Below are positions 3 through 12,623 of a DNA stretch of 12,624 bases, in pieces. The stretch comes from Candidatus Hodarchaeum mangrovi (GTDB taxonomy: Archaea > Asgardarchaeota > Heimdallarchaeia > Hodarchaeales > Hodarchaeaceae), in assembly GCA_016839515.1 (NCBI GenBank), contig JAEOUE010000035.1, forward strand, positions 1 to 12,624. Direction: 5' to 3'. A model generated the notes under the pieces. It ran no database searches and was not told the DNA's origin. It worked only from the letters and a program-made list of their open reading frames with translations. A program made the position numbers and the translations under genes. The stretch's first letter is position 1, and each line of letters begins with the position of its first letter.

Positions 3-347
3 CAAACCGTCTCTGAAGTTCTACAAAAATTCATTGAATCCACAGAAGAGCTTTCAGGGATAGCGCTGTATACAGATGAAGGTTTACCTGTTTTTGAAGA
101 GGGTGATCTTGCTGATTCCATTTTAATCCCTGCAAACCTGTGGTTAAGCAATTTAGACCGTATTCAGGATGAATTCAAGACTTCCAACACGTACAAAACT
201 TATCTTGAAACAGATGATTTGATTTTTGTCTGTGAAAGACTTAAATCTGAAATAATTCTCACAGGAATTGCAATAAAAGTTGAACCTTTACAATATATCC
301 TCATTAAAATGGAAGAGGTAGCTAATGCCCTGAAAGATATTGTATAA
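3..347 (+). CDS. Roadblock/LC7 (MglB/LAMTOR-like) domain, 5'-truncated; stand-alone roadblock or C-terminal domain of an upstream Rag-like GTPase
   Basis: Not in the ORF track. Frame 3 is open from the window edge to TAA at 345-347 (114 codons): QTVSEVLQKFIESTEELSGIALYTDEGLPVFEEGDLADSILIPANLWLSNLDRIQDEFKTSNTYKTYLETDDLIFVCERLKSEIILTGIAIKVEPLQYILIKMEEVANALKDIV*. The pattern helix, 'GIALYTDEGLPV' hairpin, helix, three strands, terminal helix is typical of roadblock domains. Confidence 0.8.
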   Translation, partial: QTVSEVLQKFIESTEELSGIALYTDEGLPVFEEGDLADSILIPANLWLSNLDRIQDEFKTSNTYKTYLETDDLIFVCERLKSEIILTGIAIKVEPLQYILIKMEEVANALKDIV

Positions 348-389
348 TCACTTTAACTAATCCAAACAATCAATTCATAATTTATAGAG

Positions 390-3300
390 ATGATATTATC
401 TTTGGTTACTATAAAATCTAGAATTTATTCTAATTTTAATTTTATTTTTTTGATATGTATTTTTTTTGGCAGTCTCTTATTAACAGATTATTCAACTCAG
501 ATTGATAATACTCAAGAATCATTTAATTTGTTAAATAGACTTATGCGAAGTTTTGGATTAATTAAAGAGAATTTAAAGGAACCAACAAGATTTTCAAGAC
601 ACGTTAATCGTCTAATTGCTCCAACACAAGATTCAACAAATAACTGTACCAGCATATTTCCTAGTGGGATAAACGCCAAGATAATTGATTCACATGAAGA
701 TTATGTCGATAATAATGTCTCAAATATAGATGGAGTAACAGATAAGGGTAGTCACTCAAATTTTGACAATCAAAAAACTGGACCAGATAATTTCTATGAT
801 GTGTTAAGTGAAACAGATGTCAATACGGTAAATCAATTGAATTTGTCTGTTGACTCATGGGATATTACACGAAATAAGTGGGCAAAGACAGGAGCTTCAC
901 CGTATTTGGATAATCAAACTATACCATCTGTAAATGAGGTTCATACAGTCGCAAACGCAGTCGGGAGTAAAAATGGTGATGAAATTGGAGATTTTGGATT
1001 TCAAGATGTAAATTTGAGTGGAACTTTAATCTCGGTAAAATTAAGTGTATATGGCCATGCTAATCCATCTTATCCGACAGATGCTTATTTTTCTGTTCAT
1101 TTATGGAACGGAAGTATCTGGATTGAAATAATGAATTTTTCAGGGGAACCAAATTTTTGCTGGAAAGAGGTAGATGTTAGCACTTACATAAATACTTGGG
1201 AAAAAGTTAATGGGACTAAGATATTCTTAAGAACTGAAGACCTTGGAGGAAATAAATATGGAGAACAGCTGTGTGATTTGGCAATTTTAGAAGTTAATTA
1301 CCTTCCTCTGCCAAATTACAATATTGATGTAGAATTACAATGGACTTCTGCTATTTTCACAAAACCAAATGCTCAGTTAGCAATTTATACAGGAAATTTA
1401 GGTACAGAAGGATTAAGAGTGGATGTGTGGAACGGATCATGGATTATTATAATTCCAAATTTGATAACGGATTCATGGAACAATGTAAGCATTGAAAATT
1501 ATTTAAAATCATCAATTTTTACTATTCGATTTAAGGGGACAGAAGAAAGCTCTGATACAACACAAGATCAATGGAATATTGATGTTACATTACTTCATAC
1601 GTGGGATAATGATATTACTCCTCCAACAATTAATGATTTTGGGGTGGACGATCTAGGGACAGGAGTGGGAATTTTTTGGGCGAATATCTCTGATTCTCAA
1701 TCTGATGTCGATGAAGTCACACTCCAAGTGAACTCATCACAATATGCCATGGTTTATAATGGTTCTCCAAGTGAATTAGGGTTTTGGGTAAAACAGATTG
1801 CTGTTAATTTTAATGGGTATTATTCGTATCAGATTATAAATGCTTCAGATTCAGCAGAGAACTATATTTCAGTTCCTTCAGAAATAAGAAACCATACATT
1901 TAATCTTGATACTACAGCTCCCATAATCGAAAACTGGGAATATTTTGCAGATATTGGAGTCAATGGGACATTTAATGCTAACATCACCGATAATTGGGGA
2001 GAACTAGACACCGTTATTGTAAATGTAACTGAAATAGATGGTATTCCCCAAAATAATTTATGGGCAATCATGGTTCCTACTCCATTTGGTTTCGTTAACG
2101 ATACTCTCTTCATGGATAAAGATCAGGTGTTTAATTTTTCTATTTTTGCTAATGATACTTCGGGGAATTCTTTCATTTCGTTAAAACACATTGGAACTGG
2201 TCCGAATCATCCACCAGAAGCAACTAACCTATCTATTTCGGTTAATCCAAGAACAAATGAATCTTTACTAGCTGATTGGATTTTTAATGATGTAGATGGG
2301 GATGGCGAAAGTGGGTCTTTAATCCGCTGGTATAAGAATGGAGTCTTAGTTCCAGCTTATAATAATCTTAAGACAGTTCCTTTTGGTGCGACAAGTAAAG
2401 GTCAGGTTTGGAATTATACACTCCAAGTATTTGATGGCGATGATTATTCAACTCTCTATTATTCGCCTATCACAACCATTATTAATACTCCTCCTGAAGC
2501 TAGTAGTGTAACACTTACACCTACACCAACAAGTAGTGACGAAATAGTGGCAGGATGGATTGCATCTGATATAGACGGTGATAACCCAAATAATTTTTTG
2601 AATGTAACAATAATTAGATGGTATCAATGGGTTGGAACATGGATAGAAATTCCAGAATGGATGAACTCCACTTATATCACACCTGATGACCTAACAAGAG
2701 ATGAGATATTTCGTTTTGAAATCCAGCTTTTTGATGGAGAGGAATATTCTCAAGTCTATATCTCTCCAAATACGACAATCTTGAATTCATTACCAATATT
2801 AACAACTATTCCATCTTTTAATAAAACAACAGGTATAACTACTTCCGATAATATCAATATTACATATCTATATAATGATGAAGATGGGGATGTAGAAGTA
2901 GTAGGGGAGAGAATCATTTTTTGGTATCGAAATGGGCAATTTAATTCAACAAAAACAAATGATACAATCCTATTAAGTTCTGAAACAGCCTCTGGAGAAA
3001 CATGGCAATATATAATCCGAGTTTATGATGGTTTTGAATATAGTATAAATTATACCTCTATCTTGATTTCAATTGATTCATATACCAATACCATCCCTGA
3101 GGTTCAAAATATTCTATTATCTGGTAATACAAATTCTACAATTGAAACTCTTATTGCAAGTTACAATTTTTATGATGCTGATGGGCATCAACAGGTTGAA
3201 AAACACATCCGTTGGTATATGAACGGTACCCTACAATCTAGTCTCAATAATTCCTTTACGGTGAATCCCAGCCTTACAGTTAAAGGCCAAATTTGGAATT

Positions 3301-6300
3301 TTACTATTAGAGTTTTCGATGGTCTAAATTGGTCTCTACAATATAATTCTAGTAAATTAACCATTCGAAATTCTATTCCGCAAGTCAATAATATACAAAT
3401 TACCTCTAATACGACAACTATATCTAATTTAATTATAGATTGGGATTTTAGTGATTTAGACGGGGACAATCAGGAAAGATTTGATCTTAAATGGTATATT
3501 AATAATATTTATAACAGTTCTTATGATGATTTAACTGAGATAGATTCAACTCAAACAAAAAAGAACCAAAATTGGATATGTTCAATAAGAATCTTTGATG
3601 GTGAAAATTATTCATCATGGTTTAACTCATCTAGAACTTTTATTTTTAATACTCCTCCTTCTCTCCAAAATTTAGGTCTTCAAGGAGGAAAAAATACAAG
3701 TCAGAACATTACTCTGGTATATAATTTTGTTGATGTTGATAACGATAGTGAAGATACAGAGAATACTATAATAAACTGGTTTTTCATTAATGGATCCATC
3801 ATTCTGGGTCAAAATACTATAGAACTCGCTAATGAGTATTTTGTTGCAGGGAATATCCTTTATGCGAAAATCACTCCCAATGATGGTGAAGATTCTGGCA
3901 CTACTTATCAAACTGGATATTTACAAATAGGAAATGCAAAACCCACAATTATTGGTCTTCCAAATATTGTTGGATTTAATGATAGTGCTATATATTTTGC
4001 TGCTGTTTCACTTTCCGTCAATTATACAGCCCAAGACTTAGATCATCCCTTTTTCATCTATGATATTGATGTTGATGAGAATGGTCTTGTAGTTGGCTCA
4101 AATTATCGTTGGTATAAAAATGGGCAAATTATGAGCGATCTAACTGGACCAATAGTCTTACCCTTTTATTTATCAAAAGGTGATCTATGGATGGTAAGCG
4201 TCCAGCCAAAGGACAGATATGGTGATCTAGGTTCTTGGATAAATTCCTCAGAAATACTTATTGGTAACACCCCTCCAGAGATATTATCATTTTCATGGAC
4301 CACCACTTCCCCAACTGTTCAAAACGACCTTTCTTTTACTTATACTTTTTATGACCTTGATTTTGATTCTGAATGGCAGAATCAAACTAAAATTTATTGG
4401 TATAGGAATAGTATAGAAATCTCTGTGGCAAGAAATCAAAGTACTCTTTCCAAATTATTGTATGTAAAGGGAGACTCTATTAACCTGTCAATTCGATTAT
4501 TTGATGGGACAAATTATAGTCTTTTATATAGATCTACATCAGTAACTGTTGTTAACTCAATTCCTGAAGCTCAAAACATCGCTATTCTTCCCACTAAACC
4601 ATATACATACGATTCGTTACAGGTCAAATATGATTTTTTCGATTATGATACTGATAATGAAAGTTCAAATCGGATTATTCAATGGTTTCGTAATGGAATT
4701 CTTGTCCCAGAATTGACAAATAGCTCAAGAGTAAATTCAACGTATACATCATCAGGAGAAGTCTGGATCCTTCATTTAAAAGTCTCTGATTCCCTTAGTT
4801 ACAGCCAAGAATATATTTTACCTCCTGTAATTATTTTAAATTCGCCTCCAAGAATATTAGGAATTTCACTTGAAGGAAATATTAATTCAAGCTTTGCTGA
4901 TTCAAGTCTTACTTTTAATCTAAATGAGGATATTATAGTTTATGATCCAGATCAGGATGTGATTATTAGTTATTCAATTTCTTGGTTAAAAAATTTTGAA
5001 TTTCAATATATCTATACTGGCCAACCAATAATTCCTGAATCTGAACTCATTAAAGGAGATATCTGGTTTGCGATTGTACGAGTCTTTGATGGTAAAGACT
5101 GGTCAGGAAATCAATCTTCTCAAGAAATCCTAATTATCAATAAAGCACCAGAAATCCTGAATCTTTGGTTAATAAACAATTCATATTCTGAATTCTTATT
5201 GGAAAATGAGAATATTTCATTAGTTTATGATTTCCAAGATATTGATGATGACTTGGATGATTCCATAATATACTGGTATCAGAATCAGATTTTTCTACCT
5301 GAATTTACCAATTCAAGTCAGATACCAGCTGAAGAAACTTTTCCAGGAGATAGTTGGTATGCTGAAATTCTCCCCTATGATGGAGAATTATTTGGTCTAA
5401 AAGTGAATTTATCGATTTACATAGAAAGTCAACCAACAATTAATGAGGTTGGAGTCGATATCAATTCTGATAAGGAGGGTCATTATACTTTTTGGGCTAA
5501 TGTTACAGATCCACAAAATCCCATCACAGAGGTAATCTTTCGTTTTGATTTCCAAAATAACACCTTAGAACAAAGAAAATGGGCTGAATTTAATGGTACA
5601 ACATGGACATTAGATTATCAACTAGAGAACTATTCTTATCTTGGGAATTTGGTACGAATAGAAGTCACAGCAATATCTACTGTAAACCCATTATTATATT
5701 CTACTAGTTTTGAGATACTTACAGTTACAATGTTTGATTATGTAATGAATGATGAAGTTGCTCCTCGGATAAGGAATGCATACTTTACAAGAGATAATGA
5801 ATTAGATCCCAAATTTTTAACTTTTTATGCTGAAGTAGAAGAATTTGGTTTTGGTATTAGTCAAATTGTTATTTATTATTATTTTAAACCCTTTACTGAG
5901 GGAAATGGAGCCACTATTGCAGATTGGATGAGTTCTTTAATGATTTTTCAGAATCGTAATTTAACAGATAGTTACGAGCTCTGGTCTCTCGAAATAGATT
6001 TTCATCACAACAACTCAAATTACGAAATTCTATATTACATTTCCACCTCAGATAAAACAGGAAATGAAGATCCTTTAGCATTTGACATCAGAGCTTACCC
6101 TCAACGAATCATTGAGAATAGGTTTATTTATAAACCTCAAGGTTTACCCGAATGGATTTTATTAATTGCAGCTTTTGTAATTTTTCTGATATTCGTTGGT
6201 GCTATGGTGTATGTAAGGTTCATACGGAAACCTGAAATAATAGGTTTTGATAGAGACATAGTTATGAAAAATATAGAAAAAATAAGTGATACTGAAATAA

Positions 6301-6806
6301 ATGCTTCTCTAGATCTACATACACTTGGAGTTATTCTTTCTTATTTTGATCAAAGATCTGGACCTGTTCCCCTTATTGTAATTCCAGACTTATTACAGGA
6401 TAATATAACGCCTTTAATAGCCCTTTCAGATCGTTCATTCAACAGCTGTGGATTTGCAAATGATTTCACCTCAAAAACATTTTCAAGCTTTGATTTCTCT
6501 CTAGAAAGTCTTATACGCATTAGTTCGATGTCCTATGGATATTCAATAGCAAATAAGGAAGCAAGAGGGGGAGCAGAACATTATACTGTAAATTTACTCA
6601 TTATTCCAGAAATATTCCCATTAATTAATCAATTCAAAGAAGAACTTCAAACAGCTGTTCATGAAATTCATATGTTGATGACAAATGAACCTGAAAACAA
6701 GGATGCAATTCTAGAATCAGTAATTAATCTCAGGAAAAGAGTTTCATACATTGTTTTATCCTATAAGGATGTTTATAAAACTACAGAACTGATAAAAGAG
6801 ACCTAA
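390..6806 (+). CDS. Giant type I single-pass membrane glycoprotein (2138 aa): N-terminal beta-rich modules, 11 cadherin/Ig-like repeats, TM helix, cytoplasmic longin/uDENN-like domain
   Basis: Uninterrupted ORF. N-terminal hydrophobic stretch; DxxPPxI/DxxAPxI Ig-like domain boundaries; 11 repeats with NxxP...DxDxD...WYxNG...GxxW...FDG; TM WILLIAAFVIFLIFVGAMVYV followed by basic RFIRKP (positive-inside); cytoplasmic SYFDQRSGPVPLIVIP and EARGG motifs. The exact start codon is uncertain. Confidence 0.9.
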   Translation: MILSLVTIKSRIYSNFNFIFLICIFFGSLLLTDYSTQIDNTQESFNLLNRLMRSFGLIKENLKEPTRFSRHVNRLIAPTQDSTNNCTSIFPSGINAKIIDSHEDYVDNNVSNIDGVTDKGSHSNFDNQKTGPDNFYDVLSETDVNTVNQLNLSVDSWDITRNKWAKTGASPYLDNQTIPSVNEVHTVANAVGSKNGDEIGDFGFQDVNLSGTLISVKLSVYGHANPSYPTDAYFSVHLWNGSIWIEIMNFSGEPNFCWKEVDVSTYINTWEKVNGTKIFLRTEDLGGNKYGEQLCDLAILEVNYLPLPNYNIDVELQWTSAIFTKPNAQLAIYTGNLGTEGLRVDVWNGSWIIIIPNLITDSWNNVSIENYLKSSIFTIRFKGTEESSDTTQDQWNIDVTLLHTWDNDITPPTINDFGVDDLGTGVGIFWANISDSQSDVDEVTLQVNSSQYAMVYNGSPSELGFWVKQIAVNFNGYYSYQIINASDSAENYISVPSEIRNHTFNLDTTAPIIENWEYFADIGVNGTFNANITDNWGELDTVIVNVTEIDGIPQNNLWAIMVPTPFGFVNDTLFMDKDQVFNFSIFANDTSGNSFISLKHIGTGPNHPPEATNLSISVNPRTNESLLADWIFNDVDGDGESGSLIRWYKNGVLVPAYNNLKTVPFGATSKGQVWNYTLQVFDGDDYSTLYYSPITTIINTPPEASSVTLTPTPTSSDEIVAGWIASDIDGDNPNNFLNVTIIRWYQWVGTWIEIPEWMNSTYITPDDLTRDEIFRFEIQLFDGEEYSQVYISPNTTILNSLPILTTIPSFNKTTGITTSDNINITYLYNDEDGDVEVVGERIIFWYRNGQFNSTKTNDTILLSSETASGETWQYIIRVYDGFEYSINYTSILISIDSYTNTIPEVQNILLSGNTNSTIETLIASYNFYDADGHQQVEKHIRWYMNGTLQSSLNNSFTVNPSLTVKGQIWNFTIRVFDGLNWSLQYNSSKLTIRNSIPQVNNIQITSNTTTISNLIIDWDFSDLDGDNQERFDLKWYINNIYNSSYDDLTEIDSTQTKKNQNWICSIRIFDGENYSSWFNSSRTFIFNTPPSLQNLGLQGGKNTSQNITLVYNFVDVDNDSEDTENTIINWFFINGSIILGQNTIELANEYFVAGNILYAKITPNDGEDSGTTYQTGYLQIGNAKPTIIGLPNIVGFNDSAIYFAAVSLSVNYTAQDLDHPFFIYDIDVDENGLVVGSNYRWYKNGQIMSDLTGPIVLPFYLSKGDLWMVSVQPKDRYGDLGSWINSSEILIGNTPPEILSFSWTTTSPTVQNDLSFTYTFYDLDFDSEWQNQTKIYWYRNSIEISVARNQSTLSKLLYVKGDSINLSIRLFDGTNYSLLYRSTSVTVVNSIPEAQNIAILPTKPYTYDSLQVKYDFFDYDTDNESSNRIIQWFRNGILVPELTNSSRVNSTYTSSGEVWILHLKVSDSLSYSQEYILPPVIILNSPPRILGISLEGNINSSFADSSLTFNLNEDIIVYDPDQDVIISYSISWLKNFEFQYIYTGQPIIPESELIKGDIWFAIVRVFDGKDWSGNQSSQEILIINKAPEILNLWLINNSYSEFLLENENISLVYDFQDIDDDLDDSIIYWYQNQIFLPEFTNSSQIPAEETFPGDSWYAEILPYDGELFGLKVNLSIYIESQPTINEVGVDINSDKEGHYTFWANVTDPQNPITEVIFRFDFQNNTLEQRKWAEFNGTTWTLDYQLENYSYLGNLVRIEVTAISTVNPLLYSTSFEILTVTMFDYVMNDEVAPRIRNAYFTRDNELDPKFLTFYAEVEEFGFGISQIVIYYYFKPFTEGNGATIADWMSSLMIFQNRNLTDSYELWSLEIDFHHNNSNYEILYYISTSDKTGNEDPLAFDIRAYPQRIIENRFIYKPQGLPEWILLIAAFVIFLIFVGAMVYVRFIRKPEIIGFDRDIVMKNIEKISDTEINASLDLHTLGVILSYFDQRSGPVPLIVIPDLLQDNITPLIALSDRSFNSCGFANDFTSKTFSSFDFSLESLIRISSMSYGYSIANKEARGGAEHYTVNLLIIPEIFPLINQFKEELQTAVHEIHMLMTNEPENKDAILESVINLRKRVSYIVLSYKDVYKTTELIKET
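441..482 (+). other. Signal peptide / signal-anchor hydrophobic core
   Basis: Residues 18-31 FIFLICIFFGSLLL, preceded by basic K9 and R11. Confidence 0.65.
2205..5426 (+). repeat. Array of 11 tandem protein repeats (93-111 aa), cadherin-like/Ig-like, probably Ca2+-binding
   Basis: Repeat starts (NxxP) at 2205, 2484, 2784, 3087, 3369, 3648, 3933, 4266, 4554, 4839, 5139. Acidic loops: DVDGD, DIDGD, DEDGD, DADGH, DLDGD, DVDND, DLDH, DLDFD, DYDTD, DPDQD, DIDDD. Divergent at the DNA level. Confidence 0.85.
6153..6215 (+). other. Transmembrane helix of the 2138-aa protein
   Basis: 21 uncharged residues WILLIAAFVIFLIFVGAMVYV followed by RFIRKP. Confidence 0.9.
6315..6803 (+). other. Cytoplasmic longin/uDENN-like domain (FLCN/SMCR8/NPRL2-like) with candidate arginine finger
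   Basis: Strand-FDQRSGP-strand hairpin (6345-6365), helix LIALSDRSF, strands around YGYSIANKEARGGAEHYTVNLLI (Arg codon 6564-6566), then two C-terminal helices; this fits the longin secondary-structure order. Confidence 0.7.
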
Positions 6807-6845
6807 GAATATCACAGACCCTTTCACTATCAATCTAACACATTA

Positions 6846-6866
6846 TTTAATAAAGTTAAATAACTT
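6846..6866 (+). promoter_or_regulatory. Possible archaeal TATA box with overlapping short inverted repeat upstream of the GTPase
   Basis: TTTAATAAA at 6846-6854 in the 86-nt intergenic gap, and AAGTTA-AA-TAACTT at 6853-6866. Weak evidence in an AT-rich background. Confidence 0.3.
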
Positions 6867-6880
6867 GATTAATCTAAAAT

Positions 6881-6885
6881 AAGGA
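6881..6885 (+). promoter_or_regulatory. Possible ribosome-binding site for the GTPase
   Basis: AAGGA 7 nt upstream of ATG 6893. Confidence 0.35.
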
Positions 6886-6892
6886 CGAAAAC

Positions 6893-7843
6893 ATGCATTC
6901 TACTAATAATATCCAAAGTAAGAAATTAGTCTTATTAGGATTAGCAGAGACTGGAAAATCGACAATAATCAAAAATGCTCTAGAAGGTATCATAACAAGA
7001 CCTGGAGAAAAATATGATGCCACAATTAATTATCAAAGAAAAATCAAAAGGTTATGTGGACTTGAAATCATAATATTTGATTTAGGAGGACAAACAAGGT
7101 TTTTAGATAAATTTACTGGAGATCTTTCACGTTTTGTTTTTAGTGATATTGATGCATTTATCTTTGTTATAGATCCTCTCCAAACAGCTCTTTATTCTCG
7201 ATCAAAGTATTACTTGGAGCTTTCTTTAGAAAGGATGAAGATCTTCAGTTCAAATGCGGAAATATTTGTGTTCCTACATAAAATGGATCTTATTCCACGT
7301 CCAGATCGTAATATTATATCAGATAATCTAAAAAAATATCTTACTTCAGAAATTAATAATCCAATTCAATATTTCGAAACTTCAGTGTTTAATGAATCAA
7401 TCTATGAGGCAATTGGCTCTATTATTTCAAAAATTTTTGATTTAAAACGGATATTTAATAAAACTCTGATTGATTATATAACGAAAAATATAAAGACTAT
7501 TGTTGAAGTTCATCTTCTTACCCATGAAGGGATATTTCTCCTTCAAGCTTCTAATAATCACTTTAAAAACTCAATTCCCCATAAAAAAATTCGTAAATAT
7601 TTTATTTATGCGTTAGAACAAAAAATCCTTTTTAATAAAGAAAATACAGTTATTTCAGTTGAAGGGAAAAAGAATGTTTATCTTACATACTTCTTAGAAA
7701 GAGGGTTAGCAGTCTTAATTGCTGTCTCAAAACAAAATTTAACACAGGACGTAAAATTTTCATCTGAGATTTATGAAGACATTCTCAAGTTCGCATTTTC
7801 ATTAAATGAAAAATCAAATCTTTTGACAAAGGGAGGTAGATGA
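6893..7843 (+). CDS. Rag/Gtr-family small GTPase with C-terminal roadblock-like domain
   Basis: G1 GLAETGKS (6938-6961), G2 YDATI, G3 DLGGQ (7079-7093), G4 HKMD (7277-7288; His in place of Asn is the Rag/Gtr signature), G5 ETSVFNESIYEA (Rag-like TSI.D.S/T...A). The C-terminal ~125 aa contain IVEVHLLTHEGIFLL, a roadblock-type hairpin. Confidence 0.88.
   Translation: MHSTNNIQSKKLVLLGLAETGKSTIIKNALEGIITRPGEKYDATINYQRKIKRLCGLEIIIFDLGGQTRFLDKFTGDLSRFVFSDIDAFIFVIDPLQTALYSRSKYYLELSLERMKIFSSNAEIFVFLHKMDLIPRPDRNIISDNLKKYLTSEINNPIQYFETSVFNESIYEAIGSIISKIFDLKRIFNKTLIDYITKNIKTIVEVHLLTHEGIFLLQASNNHFKNSIPHKKIRKYFIYALEQKILFNKENTVISVEGKKNVYLTYFLERGLAVLIAVSKQNLTQDVKFSSEIYEDILKFAFSLNEKSNLLTKGGR
7832..7837 (+). 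promoter_or_regulatory. Shine-Dalgarno-like site for ORF 7848
   Basis: GGAGGT within the last GTPase codons, 10 nt before ATG 7848; the genes are 4 nt apart, consistent with an operon. Confidence 0.55.
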
Positions 7844-7847
7844 ATTT

Positions 7848-8225
7848 ATGCTTGATCAAATTCTCCAGGACTTAGAAAGTAGAGATGTAGAAATAATATC
7901 CAGAGGCTTAAAATTTTATATCACATCTGACGATCTATGGAAAAATAATCAGGCCCTAGACCAAATATTCAATCTTTTATATCATGAAGAATATGCTATT
8001 CGAGATAAAACAGTAGAAGTATTAAAATTCCTAATTCAGTTTAATAGTTCATTACACGAAACTCTTGCTATACACTTGCTCAAAATAATAGGTAATTTGG
8101 AATTAAACATTGAATTATGGTTCCGTTGCCTAGAACTCTTTACACTCTTACCAAAAAAGTCATTACCAAAAGAATTCATCATTAAAATTTTGATTCGGAT
8201 GGCAATTATGTTCAAGGATTTTTGA
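7848..8225 (+). CDS. HEAT-repeat protein, N-terminal part (probably one gene with 8222..10903)
   Basis: HEAT-like units LESRDVEIISRGL and LLYHEEYAIRDKTVEVL; overlaps the next ORF, which is in the -1 frame. Confidence 0.65.
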   Translation: MLDQILQDLESRDVEIISRGLKFYITSDDLWKNNQALDQIFNLLYHEEYAIRDKTVEVLKFLIQFNSSLHETLAIHLLKIIGNLELNIELWFRCLELFTLLPKKSLPKEFIIKILIRMAIMFKDF

Positions 8226-10903
8226 CATTTTTAATTCGTGAAAAGAAAGGTTATGGTACAATTATAGAAGAATTGATTAATTATATAGAAGAAAAACAAT
8301 TAGATATAAATTCTGATGCTAAAAAGTCCTTTATTTGGCTTTTTTGGAATAACAACTCAATTATTAGTCCAAGAGTCATAGATTTAATTTGTAAATTAAG
8401 CGAAGATGAAGATCGAGAGGTAAGAAGATTATCCTGCGAAATTTTAGTACAATTTGCGAATGATTCCAGATTTTCATATGCTATTTTTGAAACATTGGAG
8501 AAAAGAATAACGGATGAATCTTGGCGTGTTCAGAGAGTGGCAATTAAATGTTTGTTACAGAGTACGCAGAATATATATCAAGAAGACGAACATTTTTGGA
8601 CTAAAGTTGTAGGTTTGTTTTGGAATACAAGTGCATTGGTTCGAAAAAATGTATGTGAAACATTGCCACTCTGGATTCCTATTACAGAGGAAAAAAATAA
8701 AATTTTCTTAGAAATGATTGAGAATGCGCTTGCTGATGAAAATTGGGAAGTTCGAGAAAGTGCAGCAATCTCTTTAAATAAATTTTTAGATTTGGATCTT
8801 CAATATAAGAATCTTATCTATCCAATTATGAATTTAACTAACGATCCACATCCAGAAGTTAGAAAAACAAGTTGTCAAATCTTAATCGATAGGGATAATG
8901 CATTTAATAACAAAAACGACCTCCTCAAAATAATTATTGAATTATTAAATGATTCAAGCTTCATTGTCAGAGAAACTGCAATAAAAGGTTTAAAAAAGCT
9001 AATACATGAAGTAAATAGTGAAAAACTCTTTGATCTAATCTTAAAAATCCTTCTAAAACTATTAATTGATAATAATATTGAAGTTCGAGCGGAAGCATGG
9101 AGTTTTCTTTATGATTTGATGGGAGTTTTCCATGATTCTCATTTTGATTTATTAATATCTTCTATAATCAATTTTCAAAATCCCCTTGATCAAGACATTC
9201 AATTAAACATTTGTTCTTTTTTAAAAAAATGTAAAAAATTCATTTTGGAAAATAATCCACCTGTTTTTCATTTTCTAAAACCAATGTTAAAAGATAATAA
9301 TGAAGAAGTACTTGAAAATAGCTGGGAAATATGTAGAACCATCTTTCCTCAAGAAACTAGGGATTATATAGTAGAAATTTTACCTAACATTCAGGAAGAA
9401 AATGAATCAACCTCTAAGTTTTTAAAAGAGGTATTTTGGGCATCACATGAACTAAATTTAATAAAAACCAATCAGAATATCTCTACAATAACCATTCAAG
9501 TTCTTGAATCAAGTAATGATCAGGAATTACAAATTATAATTCTTAAAATTCTTTATAATTACGAAGATGACTTTATTTCTCCAGAGTTAATCCATAGCAT
9601 TATAAATCAAGGACGATGGATTGTCCAAGAGGCGTGTATTCCTTATATTATTCGATATTGTACTCAAGAGGATATTAAGGATCAAATCAAAACAAAATTT
9701 CTGAGAATGATCAACGAACTCCTTCGAAATCCTATTGATAGATTTGAATCCTTAAATACAGAGAGTTTAAAGGGACAAGATACGGAATATGAAAAGCTCT
9801 TTTTACCTGATAATATTAGTAATCTAATTGATTCTTGTAATGATGATCAGAGGCTTAAAAATTGGATATTACTTGAAAGAAAATTTGATTTCCTTCAAAA
9901 GACCAGTCATCCAATTTTTACTCAATTAACAGAGGATTTTTGTATAATTTTCTTGCCAGAATTAAGAAAGTATACGAAAAAGCTCAATTTAATAGGACGA
10001 ATTGGAGAAAAGAATGATATAAAGATGCTAATGTCTATATTGCAAATAATGATTATTCAACAAGCGCAATTACGAGAAAAGCTCTTAAATGAGATAATGA
10101 TTTCCTTTGATTTAATTAATCCAAAATATAAAAGTATCCGAAAACAAATTATTGAAAACCTACTGATTGATTCAATCCTTAATATTCGGACTATTTCGTG
10201 GAAAATTGTATTGGATTTCATATTCAAGCTCGATGAAACACAGTTATTAGATAACCTTCCGCTAATTGCAGACCATCTTGATAGTCAATTTGAAGATGCT
10301 CGAATTAGAGCATTATCTATTTTATTATCGGAAATAAATATTAGAGAATCATCATATGAATGGATTTTCAATAAAGTAATTCAAAAAATAAGTGATCCTA
10401 CTTTTTTTGTAAGAAGTCAAGTCTGGAATTATTTAAGGAAGAAGATTGATATATCTTACTCCCGATATGATTTATTGAAACTCAAAATTTTGGATCTTTT
10501 AGCAGATGCAAATATTGATATCAGAAATGAAGCTTTTATTTATTTTGATGAGAAATATGGGACTTTTAATGAAATTATTAGTGAATATTCACACAAATAC
10601 GAGGTTAAACACGCTATAGCTACGGTATTAGGGCAACAAGGTAAGCATGATGAAGCATTTTCCTTTTTTAAAGAAAATATAAAAAATAATCCAAGCAAAT
10701 TAGAAAGTTGGTTGGGACTAGTCCTAATTTATCTCTCAAAAAATGAAATACAAAATGCTACTAGAATTCTAAATAAATTACAAGACAAACACCCATTAGA
10801 AATTATAATTTATGAGCTTCTAATTGAATGTGCCATTGAAGCAAATGATTTGGATTTAAAAAAAATATATGAAGAGAAAAAGAGATTGTTAGAAATCCTT
10901 TAA
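8222..10903 (+). CDS. Alpha-solenoid HEAT-repeat protein with C-terminal TPRs
   Basis: HEAT motifs LSEDEDREVR, ITDESWRVQR, LADENWEVR, TNDPHPEVR, LNDSSFIVR, LIDNNIEVR, LKDNNEEV, LIDSILNIR, LDSQFEDAR, ISDPTFFVR, LADANIDIR. TPR-like tail IATVLGQQGKHDEAFSFFKENIKNNP...SWLGLVLIYLSKNEIQNA. The nominal start is TTG and the frame is already open from 8186. Confidence 0.85.
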   Translation: MTFLIREKKGYGTIIEELINYIEEKQLDINSDAKKSFIWLFWNNNSIISPRVIDLICKLSEDEDREVRRLSCEILVQFANDSRFSYAIFETLEKRITDESWRVQRVAIKCLLQSTQNIYQEDEHFWTKVVGLFWNTSALVRKNVCETLPLWIPITEEKNKIFLEMIENALADENWEVRESAAISLNKFLDLDLQYKNLIYPIMNLTNDPHPEVRKTSCQILIDRDNAFNNKNDLLKIIIELLNDSSFIVRETAIKGLKKLIHEVNSEKLFDLILKILLKLLIDNNIEVRAEAWSFLYDLMGVFHDSHFDLLISSIINFQNPLDQDIQLNICSFLKKCKKFILENNPPVFHFLKPMLKDNNEEVLENSWEICRTIFPQETRDYIVEILPNIQEENESTSKFLKEVFWASHELNLIKTNQNISTITIQVLESSNDQELQIIILKILYNYEDDFISPELIHSIINQGRWIVQEACIPYIIRYCTQEDIKDQIKTKFLRMINELLRNPIDRFESLNTESLKGQDTEYEKLFLPDNISNLIDSCNDDQRLKNWILLERKFDFLQKTSHPIFTQLTEDFCIIFLPELRKYTKKLNLIGRIGEKNDIKMLMSILQIMIIQQAQLREKLLNEIMISFDLINPKYKSIRKQIIENLLIDSILNIRTISWKIVLDFIFKLDETQLLDNLPLIADHLDSQFEDARIRALSILLSEINIRESSYEWIFNKVIQKISDPTFFVRSQVWNYLRKKIDISYSRYDLLKLKILDLLADANIDIRNEAFIYFDEKYGTFNEIISEYSHKYEVKHAIATVLGQQGKHDEAFSFFKENIKNNPSKLESWLGLVLIYLSKNEIQNATRILNKLQDKHPLEIIIYELLIECAIEANDLDLKKIYEEKKRLLEIL

Positions 10904-10930
10904 ATTTCTTCTACTTTTCCTCTTTTATTA
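10904..10930 (+). terminator. Possible archaeal T-rich terminator at the convergent gene junction
   Basis: ATTTCTTCTACTTTTCCTCTTTTATTA directly follows TAA 10903. Only 7 nt separate the two convergent stops and there is no hairpin. Much of the tract is also explained by Lys/Glu codons of the opposite gene. Confidence 0.3.
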
Positions 10931-12623
10931 ATTCTGTGGTCTGATAGATATTTTCATAACTTAAAATTATATAACTGATGAATTCACGCAGATTCTTTAT
11001 CATTCTATTAATTTCATCCATTTCTTCCTCTTTCTTATCCATGTGAAGATGAATCTTATGAACTTCTGTTTTGATTTCATCTTTAAATGATTCAACAAGA
11101 GGGAAAAGATCCTGATGAACAAGGATATTCAATGTTATATTTTCTTGACCACCACGAGAATTAGGTCTCTCTAAGGCATAACCATATGAAAGAGAACTAA
11201 TTCTAATCCCTTGACTTAATACAAAATCATAACTTGAGGGAATCTCAACCGAAAAGTTGTCAGCAAATCCACAGCTACTAAATGAACGGTCACTCAATTC
11301 GACTAATTTTGTGAAGTTATCCTTCAATATTTCAGGAAGTACAATTATAGGAATTGGTCCATGTCGTTGATCAAAGAAGGAAACAACTATACCAATAGTA
11401 TGCAGTTCCATCGTATTACGGACTTCTGTTTCAGTTACATCGCTAATTTTATTCAATACTAATTCCTTATCAAGGCCCACAATTTCAGGTTTTCGAATGA
11501 ATTTTACATACACCACAGCTCCTATGAATATCAACACCACCATTGCACCAGCAACTAATAAAACCCATTCTGGTAGACCAGGAGGAAGATATTTTATGAT
11601 ATTACGTTCAATGCTATCAGGGTCGTCTCGTTGGACATCCCAAGCTGTTGGGTTACTATTTCCAGCACTATCTAAGGTTGCAATACGGTAAATGACTTTC
11701 CAATCAGTTCCATTGGCATCAAAAGGTATAGTAACAGAATAAAGGGATGAGAGAGCAGAGGAGTTAAGAAGGCTCATAAAAACGCTGTATTCTGACTGCG
11801 AAAATGAGGCTCCCAATCCTGCTGGAGCAGCAGCGGATACTTCCTCAAAGTAGTAATACAAAGACACTTCACTGATCGCACTCCCATATTCCTGTAGCTC
11901 AGCATAAAAAGTAATACTGGTAGCGTTATAGATGAAATCAACACCTTTTACACGAGGAGCTACCGCATCTGTGATGGTAAAATTAAAGGTAAATGTCTGG
12001 TAGATCTCAAAAGTTTGATCATAATCAACTTGAGTGATGATTTTTATGTCAGCGATAATTAAACGGTTTAAAAGATCCTGGAACTGGGTAGGAGTGAGCT
12101 GATAATCAAGAGTCCATGTATTAGTCCCCTGGACTTCTTCCGCATATTTAGTACCTCCAATCGTATCATTGAATGAGTATTCAACAGCATAGATGGAATG
12201 GTAAGTGTCATTCACGGTTATAACAAAGGTATAATGGCCTTCCACATCTTCTTCGATTGTAATAATTTCTGATGCTAATGTACTGAGGGAGGGACGACTT
12301 TCAATGGAAATGATTGATGAATTCAGATGTGCCCAGGTGTATGTCCCATCAAAGGGGATGATTGAACAATACCACTTCTGACCTGGAAGGGTTGCCTCGG
12401 ATGGAATGACAGATTGGTTTTCAAATTCTACAGCTTCAAGCCAGGTGTTAGTGCCCTGATCGGTAAACCAGCGGATAGAGGCATTCGAGACGTCTCTGAT
12501 AGTATTAAAGTAGTAATTAATGGATAGATTTTCATCCTCGACATAAAATTCATCCACACGAATGTTAGGATCAACCTGACCTGTGAGATCAAAGCAATAC
12601 TCAATAGTGAGCTTTTTCGTGAA
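10911..12623 (-). CDS. Paralogue of the 2138-aa membrane protein (last repeat, two Ig-like domains, TM, longin/uDENN-like tail); 5'-truncated by the window edge
   Basis: The frame stays open past the GTG at 12557 to the edge (FTKKLTIEYCFDLTGQVDPNIR|VDEF...). Collinear with the C-terminal part of ORF 390..6806: IESRP/IESQP, EGHYTF, WTLDYQL, DAVAPRV/DEVAPRI, GLPEW-TM-FIRKPEI, FDQRHGP (11355-11375), SRGG (Arg codon 11154-11156), TTELIKE. Confidence 0.9.
   Translation of the reverse strand, partial: FTKKLTIEYCFDLTGQVDPNIRVDEFYVEDENLSINYYFNTIRDVSNASIRWFTDQGTNTWLEAVEFENQSVIPSEATLPGQKWYCSIIPFDGTYTWAHLNSSIISIESRPSLSTLASEIITIEEDVEGHYTFVITVNDTYHSIYAVEYSFNDTIGGTKYAEEVQGTNTWTLDYQLTPTQFQDLLNRLIIADIKIITQVDYDQTFEIYQTFTFNFTITDAVAPRVKGVDFIYNATSITFYAELQEYGSAISEVSLYYYFEEVSAAAPAGLGASFSQSEYSVFMSLLNSSALSSLYSVTIPFDANGTDWKVIYRIATLDSAGNSNPTAWDVQRDDPDSIERNIIKYLPPGLPEWVLLVAGAMVVLIFIGAVVYVKFIRKPEIVGLDKELVLNKISDVTETEVRNTMELHTIGIVVSFFDQRHGPIPIIVLPEILKDNFTKLVELSDRSFSSCGFADNFSVEIPSSYDFVLSQGIRISSLSYGYALERPNSRGGQENITLNILVHQDLFPLVESFKDEIKTEVHKIHLHMDKKEEEMDEINRMIKNLREFISYIILSYENIYQTTELIKEEK

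Follow-up and report, generated by a model that had tools for sequence, protein, structure and literature searches.

Among the described systems, the closest to the locus studied here are the longin-domain GTPase-activating proteins (GAPs) of the Rag GTPases. These are folliculin-FNIP2 (Lst7-Lst4 in yeast), which acts on RagC/D and Gtr2, and GATOR1 (NPRL2, NPRL3, and DEPDC5), which acts on RagA/B. We analyzed a stretch of 12,624 nucleotides (nt) from the Asgard archaeon Candidatus Hodarchaeum mangrovi (contig JAEOUE010000035.1; the whole stretch is called the window here), which encodes two single-pass surface receptors, A and B, whose cytoplasmic tails have a predicted longin fold and lie beside Rag GTPase genes. 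Like folliculin (FLCN), these tails combine a longin fold with a Gly-Pro (GP) motif at the beta1-beta2 turn, a conserved arginine, a putative Rag client, and a predicted docking at the nucleotide pocket. However, FLCN is a soluble protein with a DENN domain, and its longin partner FNIP2 lacks the GP motif, while in the receptors the longin domain makes up everything on the cytoplasmic side of a protein that spans the membrane once, has an ectodomain of up to thousands of residues, and has no DENN domain. GATOR1 also has a longin with a catalytic arginine and a GP motif, and the Rag of the window is closer to RagA/Gtr1 than to RagC. In contrast to GATOR1, the locus has neither the NPRL2 C-terminal domain nor a DEPDC5-like subunit, and the receptor is membrane-integral, whereas GATOR1 is recruited by KICSTOR. 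Functional analogues can be found in plexins, which have repeated beta-rich ectodomain modules, one transmembrane helix, and a cytoplasmic Rap GAP that is thought to be switched by ligand-driven dimerization, but plexins are found only in eukaryotes, their GAP has a RasGAP-like fold rather than a longin fold, and their client GTPase is a different one.

The GP motif has been reported in FLCN, NPRL2, SMCR8, C9orf72, and some Asgard longins, where it stands beside the arginine finger, and it was reported to be absent from FNIP2, NPRL3, and non-GAP longins (PMC12290439, in the available portion of its text). As far as the available portions of PMC12290439 and of Liu et al. (10.1101/2020.10.19.343400) go, the Asgard GP longins share with the receptor tails the phylum, the GP and arginine pair, and a proposed GAP function, but text passages set them apart as stand-alone proteins, FLCN-like longin-DENN proteins, or two-component fusions. 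The available text of Liu et al. describes NPRL2-like longins fused to two-component signaling domains, as well as a conserved LAMTOR1-like/Rab-like/DENN operon, with an explicit statement that its GTPase is not a Rag. In the available portion of PMC12290439, whether a Rag or an Arf-related GTPase (ArfR) is the partner of Asgard GP longins is posed as a question, and the word "transmembrane" occurs 0 times; a preprint on Arf (10.1101/2024.02.28.582541) contains 0 occurrences of neighborhood, synteny, or transmembrane terms. According to Tran et al. (PMC10933270, available portion), it is unknown what Asgard Rag proteins do, and the GTPase genes of MK-D1 as a rule do not share operons with roadblock or longin genes, which prevents a matching of regulators to GTPases from the genome layout. 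The same available text gives the geometry of MglA-MglB, in which a dimeric platform of the roadblock/longin superfamily sits on one G domain, and the 2:1 geometry predicted here is similar. MglB differs from the receptor tail in being a soluble roadblock protein that has no arginine finger and acts on MglA instead of a Rag. The searchable full-text literature, which here leaves aside subscription papers and bioRxiv supplements, yielded no account of a receptor-fused longin beside Rag genes. The direct fusion of a predicted GAP-type longin domain to a transmembrane receptor appears to be an architecture not known before for longin GAPs.

Open reading frames (ORFs) were called with translation table 11 over the whole window, and six of them, g1 to g6, occupy it. 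Receptor A (g2, positions 390-6806, plus strand) is a protein of 2138 amino acids (aa) with an N-terminal hydrophobic signal or anchor, an ectodomain of about 1900 aa, one transmembrane (TM) segment, and the putative longin tail. The ectodomain contains eleven tandem repeats of about 96 aa (residues 605-1679; 2202-5426, plus strand), which were found when one repeat was searched against the protein with jackhmmer (11 domains, E-values from 1.8e-42 to 1.1e-19) and which carry the signatures D-x-D-G-D and W-Y-x-N-G. A hydropathy scan and the sequence place the TM segment at residues 1921-1943 (6150-6218, plus strand), directly before RFIRKPE. The cytoplasmic tail of 194 aa (6222-6803, plus strand) consists of two juxtamembrane helices and the longin domain in the AlphaFold2 model. 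Receptor B (g6, 10911-12623, minus strand) is open at its 5' end, and its 570 visible residues were modeled by AlphaFold2 with a predicted local distance difference test score (pLDDT) of 83.4 as three beta-sandwich modules, a TM helix (352-376), two short helices, and the tail domain (10914-11498, minus strand). The two receptors are paralogues, with 41% identity over 553 aa and 50% identity between the tails, and each has a single hydrophobic segment followed by RFIRKPE or KFIRKPE, i.e., by basic residues. In Foldseek searches the beta modules of receptor B matched arrays of fibronectin type III (FN3)/immunoglobulin (Ig)-like domains (fibronectin, LAR, CD45, contactins, and the bacterial adhesin SiiE), and the repeats of receptor A are related to these modules. 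The first-pass annotation had called the proteins two single-pass adhesin-like receptors, which agrees with their paralogy, the single TM segment in each, and the FN3/Ig-like modules; "adhesin-like" seems a fair label at the fold level.

Receptor A has orthologues of 2120 aa (in locus L002 below) and 2122 aa (P0001), and a protein of 2004 aa (P0027, 70% identical) is the probable orthologue of receptor B. The ectodomain of receptor A contains 68 N-x-S/T sequons, compared with 31.3 +/- 4.7 in shuffled sequences, while the tail contains 2 (1.6 expected). This enrichment, limited to the ectodomain, fits an ectodomain outside and a tail inside the cell, and the ectodomain is probably N-glycosylated. 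In 1.84 billion representatives, searched exhaustively with HMMER, the tail has at least 149 relatives at E <= 1e-3 and 70 at E <= 1e-30. In all 118 full-coverage matches the tail ends within 40 aa of the C-terminus, and a TM-like segment lies within 70 aa upstream of the tail in 105 of the 114 relatives with enough upstream sequence. The proteins that carry the tail range from 174 to 5809 aa, and the named ones are annotated as "hypothetical protein" or "DUF2341 domain-containing". A profile search with the 33-row tail alignment gave 8 matches among the 7999 best candidates scored, all of them hypothetical proteins without Pfam domains.

The composition of receptor B stands out in the window. 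Its guanine plus cytosine (G+C) content is 0.377 overall and 0.405 in the ectodomain part (especially 11571-12623), with 0.36 at third codon positions (GC3), while the other genes of the window lie between 0.28 and 0.35 and receptor A at 0.325. This may reflect a recent transfer, gene conversion by a sequence from elsewhere, or a chimeric join.

The tail of receptor A was modeled with the 33-row alignment (A1) at a pLDDT of 92.6 and a predicted TM-score (pTM) of 0.88. The model has two helices followed by beta-beta-alpha-beta-beta-beta-alpha-alpha, which is the longin order, and the tail of receptor B has the corresponding elements (strands 409-418 and 422-429, helix 431-451, strands 461-468, 474-485, and 493-503, then helices). 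By TM-score the top Foldseek match is a Lokiarchaeal longin (8yqg_B; probability 1.00, TMq 0.56, TMt 0.68, root-mean-square deviation [rmsd] 3.7 A). Further matches with probability 1.00 include FLCN (6ulg_N and 8dhb_J), GATOR1 chains (9v0j_A, 9o5a_H, and 9o5d_D), and the longin of Lst4 (4zy8_D). The longin-type matches have TMq values of 0.40-0.56 (0.40-0.46 for the GATOR1 chains), and several of them have an rmsd of 3.7-9.4 A. LOV/PAS proteins gave the lowest E-values, but a LOV/PAS identity of the tail was rejected on TMq values of about 0.30 and an rmsd of 12-35 A. The first-pass annotation had called the tail longin-like. Sequence searches could not read this, and the modeled fold bears it out. 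The tail matched 0 families in Pfam and NCBIfam, a phmmer search of the PDB gave one chance Fab match at E 0.1, and with A1 as a profile the PDB returned nothing but designed helical proteins, none better than E 0.063. Three of the 33 aligned tails matched a Pfam family, Folliculin only and below the cut-off (best E 5.2e-4). The Atlas leads for the tail were clusters bearing NPR2 and Folliculin/LST7, including one near cluster with Pfam NPR2 on 19% of its members.

A feature of the GAP longins, the GP motif, and a candidate arginine finger are conserved in the tails. Across 119 tails, G47 is present in 119 (100%), P48 in 116 (97%), and R115 in 117 (98%); P50 (100%), E119 (97%), and R171 (98%) are also conserved. 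G47-P48 (6360-6365, plus strand) opens strand 47-54 (beta2), at the position defined for GAP longins in the available text of PMC12290439. R115 (6564-6566, plus strand), the candidate arginine finger, is within the beta4-beta5 loop, between strands 98-110 and 118-127. Given the antiparallel 2-1-5-4-3 sheet of the model, this loop would lie on the same sheet edge as the beta1-beta2 turn. In receptor B, the corresponding G422 and P423 (11355-11360, minus strand) and R490 (11154-11156, minus strand) are invariant in their own alignment (A4). Both tails of the window keep the GP motif and the arginine, with no GP-less longin partner among them, and the receptor A protein ends about 10 residues past the last longin helix, with no DENN domain and no NPRL2 C-terminal domain. 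Since the tail is outside the Pfam Folliculin and NPR2 families and has no DENN or C-terminal domains, it is better supported that it works like FLCN/NPRL2 than that it is an orthologue of them.

The complete Rag gene of the window is g3 (6893-7843, plus strand), which encodes 316 aa with a G domain and a C-terminal roadblock-type domain. It matches Pfam Gtr1_RagA at 1.1e-29 (104 bits, cut-off 22), and human RagA is its best sequence match in the PDB (2.2e-17). A profile of 48 relatives aligned to RagA residues 5-282 of 313 (profile positions 7-284 of 310) at 3.5e-36, which spans both domains, and to RagC at only 2.7e-20 (128 bits for RagA/Gtr1, 76 bits for RagC). The motifs GLAETGKS (16-23), DLGGQ (63-67), and HKMD (129-132) align to those of RagA; HKxD in place of NKxD is typical of Rags. 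PF04670 is present in all 55 relatives of g3, the closest of which is a 97%-identical protein of Candidatus Hodarchaeum mangrovi. By these sequence criteria g3 is a member of the Rag/Gtr GTPase family, and the Rag-type GTPase of the first-pass annotation is confirmed over both domains.

The roadblock gene of the first-pass annotation (g1, 3-347, plus strand, 114 aa, open at its 5' end) turned out to be something else. g1 alone had no match in Pfam, including Robl_LC7, which was only hinted at by an Atlas lead. It is 90% identical to residues 187-300 of a protein of 300 aa with Gtr1_RagA at 8.4e-40 (L002:3250-4152), and this Rag is encoded directly upstream of the orthologous receptor of 2120 aa, the same place as that of g1 relative to receptor A. 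Therefore, judged by sequence and synteny, g1 is most probably the visible end of a second Rag, namely its roadblock-type C-terminal domain, and the G domain would be encoded left of the window. This Rag is different from g3, which has 31% identity to the 300-aa protein over 217 aa. A free-standing roadblock protein of the Ragulator/LAMTOR type was ruled out for g1 by the open 5' end and the match to the C-terminus of a 300-aa Rag. Thus, the window touches two Rag paralogues and encodes no free-standing roadblock protein and no Ragulator-like gene.

Another Rag family, the long Rag (about 560-755 aa), has an N-terminal Gtr1_RagA G domain, a linker rich in Pro, Thr, and Ala, and about 390 C-terminal residues without a Pfam match. 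It is found in L002 (1135-2817), L005 (10611-12806), L009, L012, L016, L017, L018, L024, L026, L036, and L048, with a shorter relative of 648 aa in L033 (2502-4448). In most cases the long Rag gene and the gene of a 300-aa, g1-type short Rag are divergently transcribed. Going by the layout of L002, a long Rag is probably encoded just left of the window, and the short and the long Rag may form a heterodimer. A gene of the tubulin/FtsZ family stands beside the long Rag in L024 (12996-14330) and L048 (15623-16948).

To see how often receptor tails lie beside Rag genes, one scan of species-representative genomes was made with a closer 11-row tail alignment (A2). It gave 49 loci (L001 and so on), all from Asgard metagenome-assembled genomes (MAGs), in which genes were taken as the longest non-overlapping ORFs and the 174 genes within three of a receptor were scanned with Pfam. 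Gtr1_RagA is an immediate neighbor of the receptor in 12 loci (L002, L005, L009, L012, L014, L015, L016, L017, L018, L026, L033, and L036), and in L010 the neighbor is the C-terminal part of a Gtr1_RagA protein cut at the contig end, which makes 13 of 49. Rags accounted for 12 of 66 genes at position +-1, 6 of 58 at +-2, none of the 47 at +-3, and 6 of the 192 at greater distances (Fisher p 1.7e-4, with loci that are not independent). The only other small GTPase among the neighboring genes scanned is a Ras-family protein in L026. In a maximum-likelihood tree of 50 tails, the Rag-adjacent receptors fall into six separate well-supported clades. The gene orders differ. A pair of Rags is upstream of the receptor in L002 and the window, a long Rag is upstream on the same strand in L012 and L018, a short Rag is 57 nt downstream in L014 and L015, and in the L005 type a convergent long Rag of about 730 aa and a divergent short Rag lie downstream. 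The neighborhood survey that the first-pass annotation had proposed thus found a recurrent linkage.

Some observations on these loci stand apart from the linkage. Five pairs of loci are nearly identical (L010/L026, L014/L015, L029/L031, L033/L036, and L034/L035, with tail branch lengths of 0.005-0.06), and their MAGs are titled "Candidatus Heimdallarchaeota TM2S.58" and "Candidatus Thorarchaeota TM1M.79", so at least one phylum label looks doubtful. L001 (9053-10585), on a complete chromosome, encodes a short tail-bearing protein (510 aa as we called the ORF, 584 aa and "partial" according to its source), which may be a truncated or decaying copy. The L026 region (14053-17136) encodes a WD40 protein of 705 aa and the Ras-family GTPase. 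Giant proteins with Laminin_G_3 and DUF2341 domains, secreted or on the surface and with up to 2607 aa visible, are repeatedly found beside receptor paralogues without a Rag, directly downstream of the receptor or within three genes (L004, L007, L008, L019, L020, L028, L030, and L039), and one receptor cluster is itself annotated as "DUF2341 domain-containing".

A complex of two receptor A tails (alignment A1), GTP, Mg, and the g3 Rag as partner (alignment A3) was predicted. The tail-Rag score was 0.71, and the best of three controls reached 0.08. This prediction passed the score mark, as did 116 of 157 solved complexes and 2 of 215 mismatched pairs, a calibration that is only rough here because of the custom alignments and the accompanying ligand. 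The runs agreed in at least 88% of contacts, and the pLDDT of the partner was at least 87. On the tail side the confidently predicted interface comprises residues 42-48 (F-D-Q-R-S-G-P), 66, 70, 73-74, 77-78, 115-118, and 120. On the Rag side it comprises 18-19 (P-loop), 40-51 (switch I), 67-70 (switch II, from Q67), and 80-85. The second tail copy contacts the Rag via the same loops. The tail family has 22 positions with at least 85% conservation, and 13 of them belong to the 18 of the interface (2.0 expected, p 5.7e-11). The multimer check that had been suggested for tail and GTPase therefore placed the tail on the nucleotide pocket of the Rag; such a model supports binding of the tail to the neighboring Rag but does not show it.

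The downstream partner of g3 is a HEAT-TPR solenoid gene (7848-10903, plus strand) of about 1018 aa, which was called as two ORFs, g4 (7848-8225, plus strand, 125 aa, the first part) and g5 (8222-10903, plus strand, 893 aa, the remainder). g5 matches HEAT in Pfam at 2.7e-32 and has a C-terminal TPR (TPR_19, 2e-4). In a homologue of 1033 aa in L006, residues 7-132 align in the frame of g4 and residues 132-1033 in the frame of g5, and the homologue reads KILDSDGNYVQG where the window shifts frame in the AAAATTTTG run near 8186-8192; the 4-nt overlap of the two ORFs lies downstream of this frame change. Thirteen of the 15 homologues outside the window have 912-1042 aa, in a search that covered proteins of 568-1808 aa. 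Since the L006 homologue reads through and most homologues are single proteins, g4 and g5 are, on this alignment evidence, one gene with a frameshift, which is either an assembly error in a homopolymer or real.

Raptor has an N-terminal conserved (caspase-like) domain and a C-terminal WD40 domain around its HEAT repeats. The first-pass annotation had listed the solenoid of the window as a HEAT-TPR scaffold and named Raptor as the HEAT/ARM-containing effector of eukaryotic Rags. The HEAT and TPR assignment holds, but Pfam found no Raptor-specific features in the protein, only HEAT-type and TPR-type families, and its best sequence matches in the PDB are consensus TPR proteins and the PP2A A subunit. 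The solenoid also appears to be linked to one Rag subtype only. By phmmer, a HEAT-TPR gene is found in only 1 of the 49 receptor loci (L006), and a link to the receptor family in general was rejected. L006 has the layout of the right half of the window, with a g6-like receptor, three small genes, the HEAT-TPR gene, and a g3-type Rag (9e-84); one of the genes between receptor and solenoid encodes a gelsolin-repeat protein (3460-3816). Furthermore, seven HEAT-TPR matches and seven g3-type Rag matches pair by equal size of the longest contig, and two of these contigs have only 4243 and 6265 nt, so adjacency is implied. The solenoid would therefore be a conserved partner of the g3-type Rag subtype rather than of the receptor family as a whole. 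Ten receptor clusters compared with these Rag/HEAT contigs gave no match, and thus the co-occurrence of the receptor B lineage with the Rag/HEAT pair is known only from the window and L006.

The computed domain identities, the order of ectodomain, TM segment, and C-terminal tail, the motif conservation, the recurrent Rag linkage, and the predicted interface lead us to propose that the receptor-fused longin domain probably acts at the plasma membrane on the Rag GTPases encoded nearby, with a GAP function as the likeliest mode. The window would then hold two copies of a receptor-to-Rag module, in which the receptor would be a type-I single-pass surface protein with a long ectodomain of FN3/Ig-like repeats and a longin tail of the FLCN/NPRL2/SMCR8 kind. 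Dimerized tails would sit on the G domain of the neighboring Rag, with the GP loop and the arginine loop against the P-loop, switch I, and switch II, and would speed up GTP hydrolysis or, at the least, sense which nucleotide is bound. Binding of a ligand or contact by the ectodomain might in this way set the local level of Rag-GTP at the plasma membrane, and the g3-type Rag might work with the neighboring HEAT-TPR solenoid as its scaffold or effector. The GAP reading is favored because the tail has the pair of GP and arginine motifs and the interface is centered on the nucleotide pocket. The first-pass annotation had already proposed the receptor tail as a GAP-like regulator of the neighboring Rag. 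The linkage, the predicted binding, and the longin fold with GP and arginine agree with it, while GAP activity and outside-in signaling are what we infer beyond them.

Several observations weigh against this proposal. The Foldseek E-values of the longin matches are only about 1e-3, and no sequence-level homology of the tail to FLCN, NPRL2, or SMCR8 was found in Pfam (above cut-off) or in the PDB sequence and profile searches. R115 is a candidate by its loop position, and its correspondence to FLCN R164, NPRL2 R78, or SMCR8 R147 is putative. The eukaryotic GAP longins are heterodimers with a GP-less partner and have DENN or NPRL2 C-terminal domains, all of which are missing here. The complex score may owe something to likeness with FLCN-Rag and GATOR1-Rag complexes of known structure; the lowest-error pairs do not include R115, and the score does not give the R115-GTP geometry, since ligands are unscored. 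There is no adjacent Rag in 36 of the 49 loci, where the neighbors are metabolic or other surface-protein genes, and the tail closest to that of receptor A (80%, in L001) is also among metabolic genes. Many loci are orthologous, from related MAGs, and the counts are therefore not independent. Moreover, the HEAT-TPR gene is frameshifted in the window.

The same linkage and predicted binding would fit equally well a tail that is a membrane tether or a platform of the guanine nucleotide exchange factor (GEF) type for Rags that have no lipid anchor, which it would keep beneath a surface protein of the plasma membrane much as LAMTOR1/Ragulator does on lysosomes. No free-standing roadblock anchor is encoded in the window, and dimers of longin and roadblock proteins are mainly GEFs or platforms (PMC10933270, available text), which also speaks for a tether. 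We nevertheless consider it unlikely. According to the available text of PMC12290439, the GP motif with a conserved arginine marks the GAP longins and is missing from non-GAP longins. In addition, the predicted contact is at the P-loop and switches rather than at the C-terminal roadblock domain of the Rag. It is through this C-terminal domain that Ragulator holds the Rags. The signal might also run inside-out, with the nucleotide state of the Rag controlling the receptor (its clustering, adhesion strength, turnover, or sorting into protrusions or vesicles) and the tail as the effector-binding site of the Rag. Effectors also read switch I and switch II, so that the linkage and the switch-region contact would be the same, and cytoskeletal genes are near some modules (the gelsolin-repeat gene of L006 and the tubulin/FtsZ-like genes of L024 and L048). 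However, a near-invariant Arg-Gly-Gly loop and a GP motif are signatures of a catalytic type and not typical of effector surfaces, and we regard this direction as quite improbable.

It is very improbable that the receptors are plain adhesins or cell-envelope proteins whose tail is a generic dimerization domain or PAS-like sensor, with Rag neighbors that reflect synteny without direct interaction. The LOV/PAS proteins, with the lowest Foldseek E-values (2.6e-4), the 36 Rag-less loci, and the giant Laminin_G_3/DUF2341 surface proteins, which are also frequent neighbors, would fit such proteins. Yet the PAS matches superpose far worse than several of the longin matches, Rag adjacency recurs in six paralogue clades with differing gene orders, the complex prediction passed with all controls at or below 0.08, and the most conserved residues of the tail are those of the predicted interface. 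The receptor-coupled GAP thus remains our preferred reading.

As for the rest of the window, the six ORFs are separated by 42, 86, 4, -4 (the overlap of g4 and g5), and 7 nt, so the largest gap is indeed the 86 nt given in the first-pass annotation. Its inventory of receptors, Rag, HEAT-TPR protein, and longin tail stands, except that there is no separate roadblock gene and that the two solenoid ORFs are one gene. Three ORFs of 79-93 aa are antisense to receptor A (1862-2113, 3188-3469, and 3672-3911, minus strand) and were taken as chance frames in AT-rich DNA. A tRNA scan and an Rfam scan of the window gave 0 matches each.

The receptor tails offer a concrete and recurrent pairing between a specific longin and specific Rag subfamilies, with a predicted interface and named residues (G47, P48, and R115). 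The fusion of a longin domain to a transmembrane receptor bears on the origin of Rag/TOR-type signaling and of membrane identity before eukaryotes, and the locus may hint that the eukaryotic nutrient-sensing switch was once driven directly from the cell surface. A bolder and rather doubtful possibility is that Heimdall/Hod Asgards run a full pathway from a plasma-membrane receptor through a longin GAP and a Rag to a solenoid effector. Two receptor tails and two or three Rag paralogues would form a 2:2 complex of longin dimer and Rag dimer, as FLCN-FNIP2 does with RagA-RagC, and folliculin and GATOR1 would descend from the tails of surface receptors. If this were true, Rag signaling would have begun at the cell surface and shifted to an internalized membrane during eukaryogenesis.

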